Shown here: in pieces, positions 1,637 to 8,891 of the stretch | Layout of the letters: every line of letters starts with the position of its first letter | Numbering within the stretch: position 1 is the stretch's first letter | Origin: Candidatus Eiseniibacteriota bacterium | Lineage (GTDB): Bacteria > Eisenbacteria > RBG-16-71-46 > JABDJR01 | DNA: 64,000 nt | Assembly (NCBI GenBank): GCA_963783375.1 | Contig: CAWANH010000029.1 | Coordinates: 868,981-932,980 of the forward strand | Direction: 5' to 3' | Notes under the pieces: model-generated | Databases searched by the model: none | Told to the model about the DNA's origin: nothing | What the model saw: only the letters and a program-made list of their open reading frames with translations | Made by a program: the position numbers and the translations under genes

Positions 1637-2941
1637 ATGTCCAAGAAGAACGGGAACGCGAAGAAGCAGGAAGGCTTCGACACCGGCGATGGCTTCAAGG
1701 TCCGCGACCTGGAGCTGGCCCCGCAGGGACGGAAGCGCATCGAGTGGGCGGAGAGCCGGATGCCGGTCCTCATGGCCCTCCGCGAGAAGTACAAGAAGAC
1801 CAAGCCGATGAAGGGGATGCGGATCGCGGGGTGCATCCACGTGACCAAGGAGACCGCGGTGCTGGTGGAGACGCTTCGGGCCGCCGGCGCCCAGGTCTCG
1901 TGGTCGGGGTGCAATCCCCTCTCCACCCAGGACGACGTGGCCGCCGCGCTCGCCGCAAAGGGAACGTCCATTCACGCCTGGCACGGGATGAACGTGAAGG
2001 ACTTCTACTGGTGCATCGAGCAGAGCCTGGCCTTCAACCCGACCCTGACCCTGGACGACGGCGCCGACCTGATCATGACCGTGCACACCAAGCGGCCGGA
2101 CAAGGCGGCGGGGATCCTGGGCGGGACCGAGGAGACCACCACCGGCGTCCACCGGCTCCGCGCCCTGGCTGCGGACGGGAAGCTCATGTACCCGATCGTG
2201 GCGGTGAACGACGCCGAGACCAAGTGGGACTTCGACAACATCTACGGGACCGGACAGTCGTCCCTGGACGGCATCCTCCGCGCCACCAGCGTCCTCCTGG
2301 CCGGAAAGAACTTCGTGGTGGCGGGCTACGGCCACTGCGGCCGCGGGGTGGCCATGCGGGCCAAGGGCATGGGGGCCAATGTGATCGTGACCGAGGTCAA
2401 GGCCACCGCGGCCTTGAAGGCCACCCTCGAGGGCTTCCGGGTCATGAAGATGGACCAGGCGGCCAAGCTCGGCGACATCTTCATCACCGCCACCGGGATG
2501 AAGGACGTGATCGTGGAGCGCCACTTCGCCCGCATGAAGGAGGGGGCGGTGATCTGCAACACCGGCCACTATGACTGCGAGCTGAACCTCGACGACCTGG
2601 AGAAGATCTCCAAGTCCAAGCGCGAGGTCCGGGCCAACAACGAGGAGTACACCCTCAAGAACGGTCGGAAGATCTTCGTCCTGGCCAAGGGACGGCTGGT
2701 GAACCTGGCCGCCGCCGAGGGCCACCCCTCCGAGGTGATGGACATGTCCTTCGCCAACCAGTTCCTCTCCTTGCTCCGGCTCTCGCGCGAGGGGAAGAAG
2801 ATGGAGAAGAAGGTCTACGACATCCCGCTGGAGCAGGACCAGGACATCGCGGGGCTGAAGCTCAAGACCATGGGCTACGCGATCGACACCCTGACCAAGG
2901 AGCAGATCGTCTACGCCACCGACTACACCGCCGGGACGTAG
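1637..2941 (+). CDS. ahcY: adenosylhomocysteinase (S-adenosyl-L-homocysteine hydrolase)
   Basis: Translation MSKKNGNAKKQEGFDTGDGFKVRDLELAPQGRKRIEWAESRMPVLMALREKYKKTKPMKGMRIAGCIHVTKETAVLVETL... gives a full-length AhcY of 434 aa with the NAD-binding region. A GAGGAG RBS lies upstream. The true start is internal to track ORF 935..2941. Confidence 0.93.
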   Translation: MSKKNGNAKKQEGFDTGDGFKVRDLELAPQGRKRIEWAESRMPVLMALREKYKKTKPMKGMRIAGCIHVTKETAVLVETLRAAGAQVSWSGCNPLSTQDDVAAALAAKGTSIHAWHGMNVKDFYWCIEQSLAFNPTLTLDDGADLIMTVHTKRPDKAAGILGGTEETTTGVHRLRALAADGKLMYPIVAVNDAETKWDFDNIYGTGQSSLDGILRATSVLLAGKNFVVAGYGHCGRGVAMRAKGMGANVIVTEVKATAALKATLEGFRVMKMDQAAKLGDIFITATGMKDVIVERHFARMKEGAVICNTGHYDCELNLDDLEKISKSKREVRANNEEYTLKNGRKIFVLAKGRLVNLAAAEGHPSEVMDMSFANQFLSLLRLSREGKKMEKKVYDIPLEQDQDIAGLKLKTMGYAIDTLTKEQIVYATDYTAGT

Positions 2942-3001
2942 GCGGGATTTCGTATCCCGGCCGGGCGGCTCTTGCCCGGTTCGCCGAAGTTGAGCGCACA
3001 T

Positions 3002-3033
3002 GGGAAGCCGGGGCCGCTGGGCCCCGGCTTCCC
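3002..3033. terminator. GC-rich 14-bp-stem hairpin between convergent ahcY (+) and the epimerase gene (-); likely a bidirectional terminator
   Basis: GGGAAGCCGGGGCC-GCTG-GGCCCCGGCTTCCC is a perfect inverted repeat 61 nt after the ahcY stop. The plus strand is followed by TCTGCC, so the T tract is weak. Confidence 0.45.
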
Positions 3034-3048
3034 TCTGCCGGCCGGAAT

Positions 3049-4041
3049 CTAGCCCCCCGACCGCGCGTCCCAGGCCGCGAGGAGCTTCGCCTCGCGATCC
3101 GCGGTGAGGCCGGACTTGAGGGTGGTGCCGGGCGGGCGGCTCATGTCCCAGGCCAGGGTCTCGCGCACGACCTGAACCGTGGAGCGGAAGGCGAGGCCGT
3201 CCCCGAGCGCCCGGTCGATGTTGACGGCCAGGATTCCCCCCTCCTCGGGCGGCGGCACCAGGGGAATCTCGCTCCAGAGCTCCGCCTTCTGATCGACCAG
3301 GAACTCCACCGGCACCCACTCCGGCTCGGCGTTGCTCCCGCTCACCTCGCGGCAGATCCGGAACAGGTCCCCCATGGCCACCGGCTCCCGGGGCCCGGTC
3401 ACGTTGAACACCCCGGTCCGCCGGCCTTCGGCCATGCGGAGGAGCCAGGCGGCCTGGTCGGAGGCGTGGATGACCTGGACCGGAGCGTCCTGCGGGGCGG
3501 GCGCGAGGTACCGTCCCCCCGTCGCGATCCGCCGCACCCAGTAGGTGAACCGGTCGGTGGGATCGTAGGGGCCGACGATCAGCCCGGAGCGGGCGATGAG
3601 CACCCGGCCCGGCATGGCGCGCTCGGCCGCGGTCTCGCAGAGGGCCTTCAGGGCGCCGTAGGTCTCGCCGGTGATCTCCTCGGTGGCCGGGTCGTCCAGG
3701 GTCGCGACCTCGGCGCTCTCGTCCATGTCGGGGGTGAACTTCCGGTACACCGAGATGCTGGAGACGAAGGTGTAGTGCTCCACCTTCTCGGCCAGGTACT
3801 CGGCCGAGGCGCGGACCAGCCGGGGCAGGTAGCCGCAGGTGTCGATCGCCGCGTCCCAGCGGCGGCCGTTCAATTTCTCCAGCCCGCCGTCCCGATCCCC
3901 GAGCACGTGCTCGGCGCCGGGGAAGAGATCCGCCCCGGTCTTCCCGCGATGGAAGAGGGTCAACTCGTGACCTTCGGCGAGGGCGATCTCCGCCAGGTGC
4001 CGTCCCAGGAAACGGGTCCCACCGATCACCAGGAGCTTCAT
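3049..4041 (-). CDS. NAD(P)-dependent epimerase/dehydratase family protein (atypical SDR)
   Basis: N-terminal MKLLVIGGTRFLGRHLAEIALAEGHELTLFHRGK is a Rossmann GxxGxxG motif; the protein is 330 aa; a GGAGGAG RBS lies upstream. Confidence 0.8.
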   Translation of the reverse strand: MKLLVIGGTRFLGRHLAEIALAEGHELTLFHRGKTGADLFPGAEHVLGDRDGGLEKLNGRRWDAAIDTCGYLPRLVRASAEYLAEKVEHYTFVSSISVYRKFTPDMDESAEVATLDDPATEEITGETYGALKALCETAAERAMPGRVLIARSGLIVGPYDPTDRFTYWVRRIATGGRYLAPAPQDAPVQVIHASDQAAWLLRMAEGRRTGVFNVTGPREPVAMGDLFRICREVSGSNAEPEWVPVEFLVDQKAELWSEIPLVPPPEEGGILAVNIDRALGDGLAFRSTVQVVRETLAWDMSRPPGTTLKSGLTADREAKLLAAWDARSGG

Positions 4042-4112
4042 GCGTGGTCTCCTCCGGCCGTCACCGGCGGCCGCTCATGGGTTCGAGCACGGGACACCGG
4101 AGCCCGCGCCGA

Positions 4113-6236
4113 TCATTGGTTCGCCGGCAATGCGCCCGCTTCCGCGCCGGCGGGCACCGGCCCCCGGTCGCAGTAGATGCCACCCCGGCGCTCGCCGAAG
4201 CCTCGGGGCGGAGCGTACCGCCCTTCCGCCAGCTTTCGCGCCAGGTCCGAGAGCCGGTCCCCCGACCCGAAGGTTCCCGAGAGGTCCACGAAGATCGCCA
4301 CCCCCGGGGCGCGGCGGCGCCAAAGGTTTCCGCCGCGGCTGTCCACGAACCCGATCGAACGGTTGAGTTCATTCTCTTCGTAGAGTCCGAAGCCGTTCTC
4401 CCCGGCCAGATCCACGAACCAACCCGCTCCCTGGCGGAGGCTCACGCCCAGGGACGACCCTCGGCCGGGGTTGTACGTGTCCGCCCCCTCGGCGTCCAGG
4501 AATATGCCCAGACCCAGATCGTCGCCGAATCCCAGGCCCCAGTTGGCCAGGTAATAGTCCGCCCCGGTAAGGTTCACGAGGATCCCCGCCCCCATCCTCT
4601 CCCCGCACCCCATCCCGCGCCCGGCGGCGATAGAGCTATCTCGCCCGGCGAGGTCCACCAGCGCCCCCAGGCCGAAGTCGCGCCCGAAACCCTGCACACC
4701 GTACCCGGCCTCGTAGGTGTCGTCGCCGGCCGCGTCCACCAGGAACCCCAGCCCCCCGGCGGGAAAGGGCCCGATCGCCGCCGCCGCCCCCTGGACCGCC
4801 ATTTCGGTTGTGTCGCCCCGGGTGCTCCAGGGGAACTCCTTCAACCTCCCAACCCAGTAGCGGTCTCTCCCCCCCAGGTCCAACAGCAACCCCAGCCCCC
4901 GCCATCCGCCGAACCCCTGGCCCATGCCGAATCCGTTGACCGGCTCGTCTCCGGTGATCTCGAAGCGGTCGTTCCCGGCCCGGTCCAGGAGGATCCCCAT
5001 GCCGTAGACCGCCGCCCCCTGGGAGAGCCACTGGCCGCGATACAAATCATCCCCCCCGTCGTCCTCGATCCAGCCCACCCCGCCGAAGCCGAATCCCGAG
5101 CCCCAGGCCGTGGCCTCGTAGACGTCGTCGCCGGCCCCGAGGTCCACCACCGCCGCGTACCCCAGGATCGCGCCTCCCGGGCCCGCCCGCCCCGAGTCCG
5201 CGGCGGCGTAGCGGTCGTTTCCGCCGAGGTCCACCACCACCGACGCCGGTTCGTCCCCCGAAGCGGACCCCGGACCCTCGTAGACATCGTCACCGCCGAG
5301 GTCCAGCACCAGGAGGTAGCTTCCGTGGTAGCGGTTGGCGCCCGCTCCCCCCACCGCGACCCGCCCGAGGGGCGAGGCCCAGTCGAACTGGAACTCGCTC
5401 TCCGCCGCGGGGAGCGCGGCCAGGGCGGCCGACGCGGTGTCCACCTCCCCCGCCAATCGCACCGCCCCGCGAGTGAGCGCGCGAAGATCCAGGCTCGAAA
5501 GCTCCCGCTCGAGTTCCCGGGTGTCATCCTCCGCGGTCTCATCCCCCTGGACCACCACCCCCCGGAGCGCCGCCGCGGTCCGTTTCCCCTTCGCCCCGAA
5601 GATCCCGCCCCGCTCCAGCTCCGAGCGGTCCACCTCGCGGTTCCGCCGCACCGCGGCCGCCCGGGAGGCCAGGATCAGCGCAGCCAGCTCCCGCGCGGTC
5701 GCCGGAGCCAGGGTCGCCTCCTCGCGGGTCACCGTCTCGCGGTCCTTTCCCTGGAACCGTTTCCCGGTCCCGGTGAAGAGCGCCTCCATGGCGGTGGTGA
5801 CCGGGGTGGATGACGACTGCACCGCCCGCTCCTCGGCCGCGAGCACGGTGTCGGGGAGCGGAGCCACCGAGACCTCGGGCTCCCCCAGGTCGGCGAGGAG
5901 CGCCATCACCCCACCCACCGACGACGCCCGCGCCAGCTCCCGGGCCGCCCCCTCCAGGGTGGCCGGGGCCCGGCCGGGCTCGTCCATCACGTACTTCTGG
6001 AAACGGAGCCGCCCCGCCGGCTCCCCCATCAGCGCCAGCGCGGCGGGGTCGACGCGGAACGCTTCGGGCGTCGTGCCGTCCAGCGCGGCCAGCGTGTCGA
6101 GCACCGCCCGAAGGCGCGGGGAGTCGCATACCAGCGTGTCGGCCGCGGTCCCCGGGGGGGAAGCCTCGGGGGCGCGGACGGCGGAGCCGAAGGCCAGCAC
6201 GAGCCCCAGGAAGACCGAAGCCGCTCCGCGACTCAA
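4113..6236 (-). CDS. secreted Gly/Asp-rich tandem-repeat protein with about 11 repeats of ~24 aa and core hhhD(L)xGxDxY; predicted beta-solenoid, function unknown
   Basis: A TTG start at 6236..6234 overlaps the plsC TGA (TTGA) and gives MSRGAASVFLGLVLAFGSAVRA|PEASP, a Sec signal peptide. An alpha-helical ~300-aa region follows. The repeats include LVLDLGGDDVYEG, VVDLGGNDRYAA, VVDLGAGDDVYEA, ILLDRAGNDRFEI, LLLDLGGRDRYWV, FLVDAAGDDTYEA, LVDLAGRDSS, LVNLTGADYY, FLDAEGADTYN and FVDLAGENGF. The upstream part of track ORF 4113..7016 lies out of frame over plsC. Confidence 0.6.
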   Translation of the reverse strand: MSRGAASVFLGLVLAFGSAVRAPEASPPGTAADTLVCDSPRLRAVLDTLAALDGTTPEAFRVDPAALALMGEPAGRLRFQKYVMDEPGRAPATLEGAARELARASSVGGVMALLADLGEPEVSVAPLPDTVLAAEERAVQSSSTPVTTAMEALFTGTGKRFQGKDRETVTREEATLAPATARELAALILASRAAAVRRNREVDRSELERGGIFGAKGKRTAAALRGVVVQGDETAEDDTRELERELSSLDLRALTRGAVRLAGEVDTASAALAALPAAESEFQFDWASPLGRVAVGGAGANRYHGSYLLVLDLGGDDVYEGPGSASGDEPASVVVDLGGNDRYAAADSGRAGPGGAILGYAAVVDLGAGDDVYEATAWGSGFGFGGVGWIEDDGGDDLYRGQWLSQGAAVYGMGILLDRAGNDRFEITGDEPVNGFGMGQGFGGWRGLGLLLDLGGRDRYWVGRLKEFPWSTRGDTTEMAVQGAAAAIGPFPAGGLGFLVDAAGDDTYEAGYGVQGFGRDFGLGALVDLAGRDSSIAAGRGMGCGERMGAGILVNLTGADYYLANWGLGFGDDLGLGIFLDAEGADTYNPGRGSSLGVSLRQGAGWFVDLAGENGFGLYEENELNRSIGFVDSRGGNLWRRRAPGVAIFVDLSGTFGSGDRLSDLARKLAEGRYAPPRGFGERRGGIYCDRGPVPAGAEAGALPANQ

Positions 6237-6979
6237 GACACCGGCTCCCGCGCCTGCGCTTCGGGAAGGCCGGAGAGGATCGCCTCGCGCACCCGGGCAG
6301 AGAGCGCGGGAATGTCCGCCCGGGTGAGCCCGGCGGTGGGAATGGGCGGGTGGATGATCACGGTGATCCGGCCCGTCCGCGGGAGAAGCTTCCGCTTCCC
6401 GAGGATCCGCCCGGTGTTCCGGATGGAGATCGGGAGGATGGGATAGCCGGTATCCACCGCCACGTAGAAGCCGCCCTTCTTGAACGGCAGGAGTCGCTGA
6501 TCGGGCGAGCGGGTTCCCTCGGGGAAGACGGCCAGGGCGATCCCCTTCCGCATGCGGCTCACCGCCTGGCGAAGCGCGGTCACCGCCTGCTCGCGGTTTC
6601 CCCGGTCCACCTTGATGTGGTGGGAGGCCCCCAGGGCCCAGCCCAGGAACGGCGCGCGCACCAGCTCCCGCTTGGCCACGAAACGGACGGAGAGGCCCTT
6701 CAGGGCCACCACCGTGGCCGGGATGTCCAGGTAGCTTCGATGGTCGGCCATCATCACGCAGGCCTGGCCGAGGGGGAGGTGCTCCCGGCCCTCGGTCCGA
6801 ACCGGGGCCAGGAAGCAGGCGAGCATGGTCCGGCTGTAGAGTTGCTGGGAGAACTCCATCCAAACCGCGTGGGGATCGAAGGGGGCGCCCACGAGATACA
6901 GGAGCCCGATGAGCATGCTCCAGATCGCCGCCCAGAAATAGGCCCACACCGCGAAGATCACCCGAGCCGCCACGTTCAT
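6233..6979 (-). CDS. plsC: 1-acyl-sn-glycerol-3-phosphate acyltransferase
   Basis: An N-terminal TM helix is present. The HxxxxD acyltransferase box (MADHRSYLDIPA) and FPEGTRS motif are typical of PlsC. The protein is 248 aa. Confidence 0.88.
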   Translation of the reverse strand: MNVAARVIFAVWAYFWAAIWSMLIGLLYLVGAPFDPHAVWMEFSQQLYSRTMLACFLAPVRTEGREHLPLGQACVMMADHRSYLDIPATVVALKGLSVRFVAKRELVRAPFLGWALGASHHIKVDRGNREQAVTALRQAVSRMRKGIALAVFPEGTRSPDQRLLPFKKGGFYVAVDTGYPILPISIRNTGRILGKRKLLPRTGRITVIIHPPIPTAGLTRADIPALSARVREAILSGLPEAQAREPVS

Positions 6980-7024
6980 GGTCGAAGACTTTCGGGGGAA
7001 CCGCCGGAGCGGTCAAGGGAGGAA

Positions 7025-7064
7025 CGGATCAAGCGAGGGGGCGGAGATGGAAATCTCCGCCCCC
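7025..7064 (-). terminator. hairpin downstream of mdh (12-bp perfect stem GGGGGCGGAGAT-GGAA-ATCTCCGCCCCC)
   Basis: A perfect palindrome lies at 7037..7064. On the minus strand it is followed by CUCGCUUGAUCC, which is moderately U-rich. Position is consistent with an intrinsic terminator for mdh. Confidence 0.4.
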
Positions 7065-7146
7065 AGCGCGAGGGACCGGCGGAGAGAGGCCGGGCCTCCC
7101 CCCGCGTCGGAACCCGGACTTCCGCGGATCGCAGGCGCCCGCGGGC

Positions 7147-8073
7147 TCAGTACCCCAGCTCGCGGATGCTCGAGAGCACCTCGGCCGCCGACTTCCGGAG
7201 GGCGTCACCCTCGGCGTCGGTGAGCGGGAGCTCCAGGATCCTCTCCACCCCGCCCGCGCCCAGGATCACCGGCACGCCGACGTAGGTGCCCTCCACCCCG
7301 TACTGCCCGGTGCAATAGGCGGCGGCGGGCAGTAGGCGCTTGTTGTCGAGCAGGATGGCCTCGACCATCTGGGCCGCGCTGGCCCCGGGGGCGTAGAAGG
7401 CGCTTCCCGTCTTGAGCAACGCCACGATCTCGCCCCCCCCCTTCCGGGTGCGCTCGACCAGGCGGTCGATGGTGGCCTGGTCCATGAGGTCCATGATGGT
7501 GACCCCGCTCACCGTGGAGTAGCGCGGGAGCGGTACCATGGAGTCGCCGTGCCCGCCCATCACCATGGCCTGCACGTCGACCGGAGCCACGTTCAGCTCG
7601 GCGGCGATGAAGGCGCGGAAGCGCGCGGAATCCAGCACCCCGGCCATCCCCATCACCCGGTTGGGCGGGAAGCCGGTGGTCTTCATCATGTGGTAGGTCA
7701 TGATGTCGAGCGGGTTGGAGACCACCACCACGAAGGCGTCGGGGGCGTTCTTCTTGATCTCGGCCCCGATGCTCCCCACGATCTCCGCGTTCTTGGTGAG
7801 GAGGTCGGTCCGGCTCATGCCGGGTTTCCGGGGGAAGCCCGCGGTCACCAGGACCACATCCGAACCCTTCAGGTCCTTGAAGTCGTTGCTGCCGGAGACC
7901 TTGGAGTTGTAGCCCCGCACCGGGCCGGCCTCGAGCAGATCGAGCCCCTTCCCCTGGGGCACGCCGTCGACGATATCCACCAGAAGGACGTCGCAGAGCC
8001 CGCGATCGGCCAGGTACAGCCCCGCCGAGGCCCCCACGTTTCCGCCACCGCCGATCACGCTCACCTTCTTCAT
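7147..8073 (-). CDS. mdh: malate dehydrogenase (LDH-like MDH family)
   Basis: Translation MKKVSVIGGGGNVGASAGLYLADRGL...VVLVTAGFPRKPGMSRTDLL...MGGHGDSMVPL gives 308 aa. A GGGAGGGGAGGAA RBS lies upstream. Confidence 0.93.
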   Translation of the reverse strand: MKKVSVIGGGGNVGASAGLYLADRGLCDVLLVDIVDGVPQGKGLDLLEAGPVRGYNSKVSGSNDFKDLKGSDVVLVTAGFPRKPGMSRTDLLTKNAEIVGSIGAEIKKNAPDAFVVVVSNPLDIMTYHMMKTTGFPPNRVMGMAGVLDSARFRAFIAAELNVAPVDVQAMVMGGHGDSMVPLPRYSTVSGVTIMDLMDQATIDRLVERTRKGGGEIVALLKTGSAFYAPGASAAQMVEAILLDNKRLLPAAAYCTGQYGVEGTYVGVPVILGAGGVERILELPLTDAEGDALRKSAAEVLSSIRELGY

Positions 8074-8175
8074 GATTCCTCCCCTCCCTTTCGAGGCTGG
8101 ATGGTTGTCGTTCCCGCCGTTGAACCGGCGGGGACGTTCAAACTGTGCTCACCGATCTGACCCGTGTCTTCCGCC

Positions 8176-8225
8176 CCCAAACGAAAAGACCATGGCCCGC
8201 GGCGTCGGCCGGGCGGGGCATGGTC
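8176..8225 (-). terminator. intrinsic terminator candidate after the rplU-rpmA operon
   Basis: An imperfect long GC hairpin (GACCATGCCCCGCCCGGCCG...CGGGCCATGGTC, 8188..8225) is followed on the minus strand by CUUUUCGUUUGG. Confidence 0.45.
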
Positions 8226-8281
8226 TCATTCGACGTTTCGGACGGCGTGCGGCGACTCCCGCCGGGGAGGTCGCCGGTGGC

Positions 8282-8539
8282 TTACTCGGAGGCCTCTATC
8301 GAGACTTCCTTCCGATCCTTGCCCTTGCGCGCAAATGTCACCCGCCCGTCCACCAGGGCGAACAGCGTGTCGTCCTTGCCCCGCCCCACATTGACCCCGG
8401 GAAGGATCCGGGTGCCGCGCTGGCGCACGATGATGCTGCCCGCGGTGACCCGCTCTCCGCCGAAGGCCTTCACGCCGAGCCGTTGACTGTTGGAATCCCG
8501 GCCGTTCCGGCTCGATCCTACACCTTTTTTGTGTGCCAT
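8282..8539 (-). CDS. rpmA: 50S ribosomal protein L27
   Basis: [62 protein letters not shown] is the canonical L27 sequence. Confidence 0.93.
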
Positions 8540-8579
8540 GAGTCAGCTCCTGAACGCTTCAAAGGGTTCTGTCGGGCGG

Positions 8580-8891
8580 TCAGCCCTCGATGCCGTCGAT
8601 ACGAATCTCGGTGTAGTCCTGGCGATGCCCCCACCGGCGGCGATACTTCCGGCGGCGCTTGAACTTGCCCGCCACGAGCTTGGGGGTGCGGGCATGCTCC
8701 ACGACCTGGGCGGAGACCGAGGCCCCCTCCACCGTCGGGGTACCCACCTTGACCGAGGTCCCGTCCTGGACCAGGAGGACCTCGTCGAGGGTCAGGGTGG
8801 CCCCTTCCTCGGCCTCGAGGAGGGGAACCCGGAGCACCTGGTCCTTTTCCACCCGGTACTGGAAACCGGCGACCTTGATGACTGCGAACAT
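8580..8891 (-). CDS. rplU: 50S ribosomal protein L21
   Basis: The true ATG is at 8891 (internal to track ORF 8580..9095). MFAVIKVAGFQYRVEKDQVLRVPLLEAEEGATLTLDEVLLVQDGTSVKVGTPTVEG... gives 103 aa. Confidence 0.9.
   Translation of the reverse strand: MFAVIKVAGFQYRVEKDQVLRVPLLEAEEGATLTLDEVLLVQDGTSVKVGTPTVEGASVSAQVVEHARTPKLVAGKFKRRRKYRRRWGHRQDYTEIRIDGIEG

Follow-up and report, generated by a model that had tools for sequence, protein, structure and literature searches.

A predicted beta-helix protein encoded beside a plsC-like gene in an Eisenbacteria genome belongs to a large, widespread and unnamed bacterial family

In a contig of a Candidatus Eiseniibacteriota bacterium, a gene on the minus strand has a start codon that overlaps the stop codon of a phospholipid-synthesis gene and encodes a protein of tandem Gly/Asp repeats. 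A preliminary description, made from the letters of the DNA, could not place this protein in a named family and found it an unusual partner for plsC. What kind of protein is this, and does its position behind an acyltransferase gene indicate what it does? We approached the question within a 64-kb window (the whole stretch of DNA that was analysed, 64,000 nucleotides), using profile searches, an AlphaFold2 model and the gene neighbourhoods of homologs.

The target is a real gene. Translation of the minus strand yielded the open frame of 707 aa that had been described (Table 1), an identical protein (P0001) is present in public assemblies, and there are 426 homologs. Independent pairwise E-values run from 1e-134 to 1e-33. 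The mechanical ORF list also held a 967-aa ORF (4113-7016), which we discarded because it is a shadow frame lying across the acyltransferase gene. The TTG start (6236-6234) overlaps the acyltransferase stop TGA (6235-6233), as the preliminary description had it. Orthologs start at the same position as the target, with GTGA or ATGA overlaps and Shine-Dalgarno-like motifs; three of these loci (L002, L005 and L004) carry a purine-rich GGAG, GGGGAGG or GGGGGG at equal distance from the start. An internal ATG (M70, within LALMGEP), which would leave the protein without a signal peptide, is excluded as the start because the ortholog-invariant residues A50, R61, D63 and P64 lie upstream of it. A promoter and terminator consensus scan of positions 2900-8700 produced no score above those of shuffles and was thus uninformative in this genome of 70% GC.

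Table 1 Features of the target gene and its immediate neighbours in the window
Feature	Position	Strand	Description	Basis
Whole coding sequence of the target	4113..6236	(-)	707 aa + stop; putatively exported two-domain protein	Translation
Start/stop overlap TTGA, acyltransferase gene/target	6233..6236	(-)	Putative translational coupling	Sequence
Shine-Dalgarno-like GGGAG	6245..6249	(-)	8 nt upstream of the TTG start	Sequence
Signal-peptide-like N-terminus	6171..6236	(-)	aa 1-22, MSRGAASVFLGLVLAFGSAVRA; cleavage site uncertain	Read from sequence
All-alpha N-terminal domain	5418..6119	(-)	aa ~40-273, 12 predicted helices	AlphaFold2 model
Right-handed parallel beta-helix (predicted)	4167..5390	(-)	aa ~283-690, 12-13 coils of ~27 aa	
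Upstream plsC-like gene	6233..6979	(-)	248 aa; 1-acylglycerol-3-phosphate O-acyltransferase family	PF01553, TIGR00530, motifs
Downstream NAD-dependent epimerase/SDR-like gene	3049..4041	(-)	330 aa	PF01370, E 1.1e-10; synteny

Of the earlier reading of a signal peptide followed by a helical region, the helical region is borne out by the model, and the N-terminus resembles a signal peptide. This hydrophobic N-terminus is modelled as a lone helix (aa 3-17), and a comparable stretch lies within the first 70 residues of 39 of 46 diverse homologs. From these features we infer that the protein is exported by the Sec pathway; the exact cleavage site is uncertain because a Pro directly follows VRA, the best AxA-type site. 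The helical domain that comes next in the model carries clade-specific motifs (RVDPA, EPxRxP and GTGKRFQGKDR).

The remainder of the protein consists of repeats with the core hhhD-x-G-G-[DN]-D-x-Y, in a region where Gly accounts for 23% of the residues and Asp for 9.5%. Between aa 309 and 616 we counted 10 matches to a strict pattern, [hydrophobic]x3-[DN]-x-x-G-x-[DN]-x-[YFS]; across 5,000 shuffles of the same region it matched 0.008 times on average and never more than once. Three degenerate coils beyond the strict matches bring the total to about 13. The coils are spaced by 24, 29, 27, 26, 35, 48, 27, 27, 26, 28, 23 and 19 aa. About 11 tandem repeats of ~24 aa had been proposed; the tandem repetition stands, and its number and period are revised (Table 1), the median spacing of ~27 aa making the earlier period slightly too short. 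AlphaFold2 modelled the region as a right-handed parallel beta-helix (pLDDT 87.7 and pTM 0.90 for the target). With high confidence, this model supports a beta-solenoid in which each coil has one Asp/Gly turn, the fold anticipated from the letters. Across the family the consensus of a coil is QGxGxxxG-h-G-h-L-h-D-x-G-G-[DN]-D-x-Y-x-A, with an RTX-like turn, D-x-G-G-[DN]-D-x-Y, at one corner of each coil.

Searches for a named family came back empty, in agreement with the preliminary description. Pfam and NCBIfam scans of the target found no family at E ≤ 1, PHROGs and PADLOC scans gave no match, and a Pfam scan of 46 homologs returned only stray weak matches. In sequence searches of the PDB, neither the single protein nor the family profile nor a 28-position single-repeat profile gave a significant match, and Foldseek found no match in the PDB at E ≤ 0.001. 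Literature searches on Eisenbacteria and on HEAT, beta-helix and periplasmic proteins likewise returned nothing on this family.

We built a family profile from 46 diverse members, the target among them. The target matches this profile with 696.7 bits over profile positions 3-665, a score that is partly circular because the target sits in the alignment, and it is the only match in the window. At E ≤ 1e-3 the profile retrieved 4,634 clusters (50% identity), most of them matched over the full two-domain profile, and family members have a uniform size of ~650 aa. Those that could be named come from Eisenbacteria, Planctomycetota, Kiritimatiellia, Gemmatimonadota, Nitrospirota, Riflebacteria, and Delta- and Gammaproteobacteria. 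The target thus belongs to a large and widespread bacterial family that has no name in the databases. It comprises several thousand clusters across phyla mostly known from metagenomes, yet Pfam and NCBIfam lack a model for it and no structure of a relative has been solved. Its architecture is distinctive and confidently predicted, and the family would make a good new domain-family entry.

We compared the repeat with known Gly/Asp-rich systems. The turn had been described as resembling Ca-binding turns while being neither the RTX nonapeptide nor an FG-GAP repeat, and the comparison agrees. The G-x-D-x-U core of RTX repeats (PF00353) recurs in the target turn G-G-[DN]-D-x-Y; in both, an Asp lies two positions ahead of a conserved hydrophobic or aromatic residue, and both are Gly/Asp-rich and tandem. 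However, the RTX HMM matched neither the target nor the 46 homologs at E ≤ 1, and of the RTX motif the target has only the G-x-D-x-aromatic half. RTX proteins have back-to-back nonapeptides in a two-sheet beta-roll, a C-terminal T1SS signal and no N-terminal signal peptide, whereas the target has one motif per ~27-aa coil, a three-sided beta-helix in the model and an N-terminal hydrophobic signal-like segment. ABC, MFP or OMP secretion genes lay beside no target-family gene in the loci examined. FG-GAP/VCBS repeats gave no Pfam match in the target or the 46 homologs and form propeller blades, in contrast to the modelled solenoid. The SBBP model (PF06739) did not match the target and matched only 2 of the 46 homologs weakly (best E 5e-4); here too a beta-helix, not a propeller, is predicted.

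By identity, the solved structure closest to the target is 3p4g, which is also the only one that Foldseek brings near (with a match weaker than E ≤ 0.001). It shows region IV of MpAFP from Marinomonas primoryensis, a right-handed beta-helix with bound Ca2+ that is built from thirteen RTX-like repeats of 19 aa; MpAFP is an ice-binding adhesin of 1.5 MDa for which its authors proposed type I secretion (PMC3492233). The same work quotes the RTX consensus as GGxGxDxUx and gives an MpAFP peptide, IDAGTGNDEIY (PMC3492233), which resembles the hDLGGNDxY of the target family. The 19-aa coil of MpAFP contains two RTX-like nonapeptides, whereas the ~27-aa coil of the target contains one such turn and a QGxG arc. 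Unlike MpAFP, the target has an N-terminal signal-like peptide and a helical domain and lacks a Thr/Asx ice-binding array, and there is no detectable sequence homology between the two (the PDB profile searches were empty).

We interpret the target as a Sec-exported, non-enzymatic envelope protein with an RTX-like turn in each coil and a cation-binding Asp ladder, acting as a scaffold or binding module, and give this reading a probability of about 0.5. The two conserved Asp residues per coil would stack into a ladder along which Ca2+ or another divalent cation is bound in a row, as the motif and the likeness to 3p4g suggest. The solenoid would stiffen only once it is exported, as RTX beta-rolls and the Marinomonas antifreeze-adhesin beta-helix do. 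The N-terminal helical domain may make protein-protein contacts, and so may the exported HEAT-repeat partner that is fused or translationally coupled in most other lineages. Given a cation-stiffened solenoid and such contact-making domains, the most likely role would be that of a scaffold or binding module that is stabilised by cations and located in the periplasm or at the cell surface. The Asp ladder could instead be purely structural (Asx-type turns) or bind something besides Ca2+. Such a family would not challenge current understanding; it would widen the Ca2+-type beta-solenoids past the RTX nonapeptide to a Sec-exported form with a single turn per ~27-aa coil.

The model also resembles solved right-handed beta-helices in three dimensions, which places it in the pectin-lyase-like fold class. 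The protein might be a carbohydrate-active enzyme of this class (a polysaccharide lyase, glycosidase or C5-epimerase) that acts on exopolysaccharide or an envelope glycan and uses Ca2+ as a cofactor in catalysis, as PL6 lyases do. We consider this unlikely. PL6 lyases, AlgG/AlgE epimerases, phage tailspikes, NosD, TpsA and autotransporter passengers share only 5-12% identity with the target, and Foldseek retrieved none of these enzymes at a meaningful E-value. HMMs for Beta_helix, Pectate_lyase_3, NosD, Fil_haemagg, the TPS domain and Autotransporter, and glycosidase/lyase families in Pfam, matched neither the target nor the 46 homologs. Pectate-lyase-like beta-helix proteins have neither the N-terminal helical domain of the target nor the HEAT partner.

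Residue conservation points the same way. Among the 46 diverse members, 100 beta-helix columns are conserved at ≥70%, including 48 G, 24 D, 11 Y, 8 L and 5 Q. Nearly all of these columns are periodic, none is His, Cys, Lys or Glu, and R640 is the sole conserved non-periodic polar residue. The catalytic-type residues that pectate-lyase-like enzymes conserve, such as Lys/Arg/His/Glu at non-periodic positions or a DPHD-type motif in lyases and epimerases, are absent from the family as a conserved set. This pattern fits a scaffold or binding protein stabilised by cations better than an enzyme.

A surface location would suit an adhesin or exoprotein, built in the manner of a TpsA or autotransporter passenger beta-helix or an RTX adhesin, whose Asp/Ca2+ face binds surfaces, cells or minerals outside the outer membrane. 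This is doubtful given that the target has no TPS secretion domain, autotransporter barrel, T1SS-type C-terminal signal or known sorting signal, has no Pfam match, and that TpsB and T1SS genes are absent from the neighbourhoods examined. Giant adhesins vary in length, in contrast to the uniform size of this family, and the pairing with an exported HEAT protein suggests a periplasmic complex.

By sequence, the upstream gene is a member of the PlsC/LPLAT acyltransferase family (PF01553, E 1.6e-29, 102.8 bits against a cut-off of 23; TIGR00530, 107.1 bits against 102.95) whose translation carries the HX4D (HRSYLD) and FPEGTRS motifs; its substrate specificity may be that of PlsC or of an OlsA-like enzyme. 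A narrower clade alignment used as query found only four genome loci. The four Eisenbacteria-type loci compared (L002-L005) all keep the SDR-like gene in its position, which in the window begins 71 nt past the target stop. The start/stop overlap recurs in three of them (GTGA in L002 and L005, ATGA in L004), and L003 has a 38-nt gap. The conserved string runs L21, L27, malate dehydrogenase, acyltransferase, target and SDR-like gene. In the Eisenbacteria-type lineage, the target and the plsC-like gene probably share a transcript and coupled translation. The partnership noted in the preliminary description holds within this clade and ends there; plsC adjacency is absent from 80 sister-subfamily loci.

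If the coupling were functional, the target could be a partner of the acyltransferase in membrane-lipid or outer-membrane biogenesis, for example a periplasm-bridging lipid chaperone. The 4-nt overlap is shared between the window and the three orthologous loci at a protein identity of only ~43%, and isolated other lineages have LpxK/GT9/Kdo kinase (L007), Lip_A_acyltrans (L096) or an APP1-like phosphatase (L006) nearby, both of which favour such a role. However, the 80 sister-subfamily loci contain no relatives of plsC, LpxK, Kdo kinase or APP1, and only one Lip_A_acyltrans and one GT9 match, and on these loci we rejected a family-wide association with lipid or LPS genes. The Eisenbacteria string reads as lineage-conserved housekeeping synteny because it includes L21, L27 and malate dehydrogenase, and the predicted structure, viewed above coordinate level, gives no hint of a hydrophobic groove. 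We regard a lipid-related role as very unlikely.

The family-wide partner is a HEAT-repeat domain, which is not visible from the target sequence alone. Partner domains in the sister subfamily are either fused (44) or encoded by adjacent ORFs (30), and 71 of the 74 match HEAT_2; the arrangement is likewise present in L007/L008 and L096. Hydrophobic residues also line up near the N-terminus of most of the separate HEAT partners, a few of which carry lipobox-like motifs. This tight pairing with an exported protein suggests a periplasmic complex, and its near-obligate nature provides a concrete handle on the function of the family. No HEAT partner was found beside the target or its Eisenbacteria-type orthologs, or elsewhere in the window, so the mode of action of the target clade may differ from that of the rest of the family.

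More speculatively, the helical and Asp/Gly beta-helix protein and its exported HEAT partner could constitute an unrecognised two-component envelope module that spans phyla and performs one conserved job, possibly that of a periplasmic, Ca2+-dependent scaffold on which the outer membrane or envelope is assembled. In Eisenbacteria the version coupled to plsC and without HEAT would then be a rewired form tied to membrane-lipid synthesis. We think it improbable that this whole scheme applies. Other recurrent neighbours of family genes encode molybdopterin oxidoreductase, EamA, alpha-amylase, CBS, CsgG/PEGA and DUF456 proteins, and these represent lineage-specific synteny.

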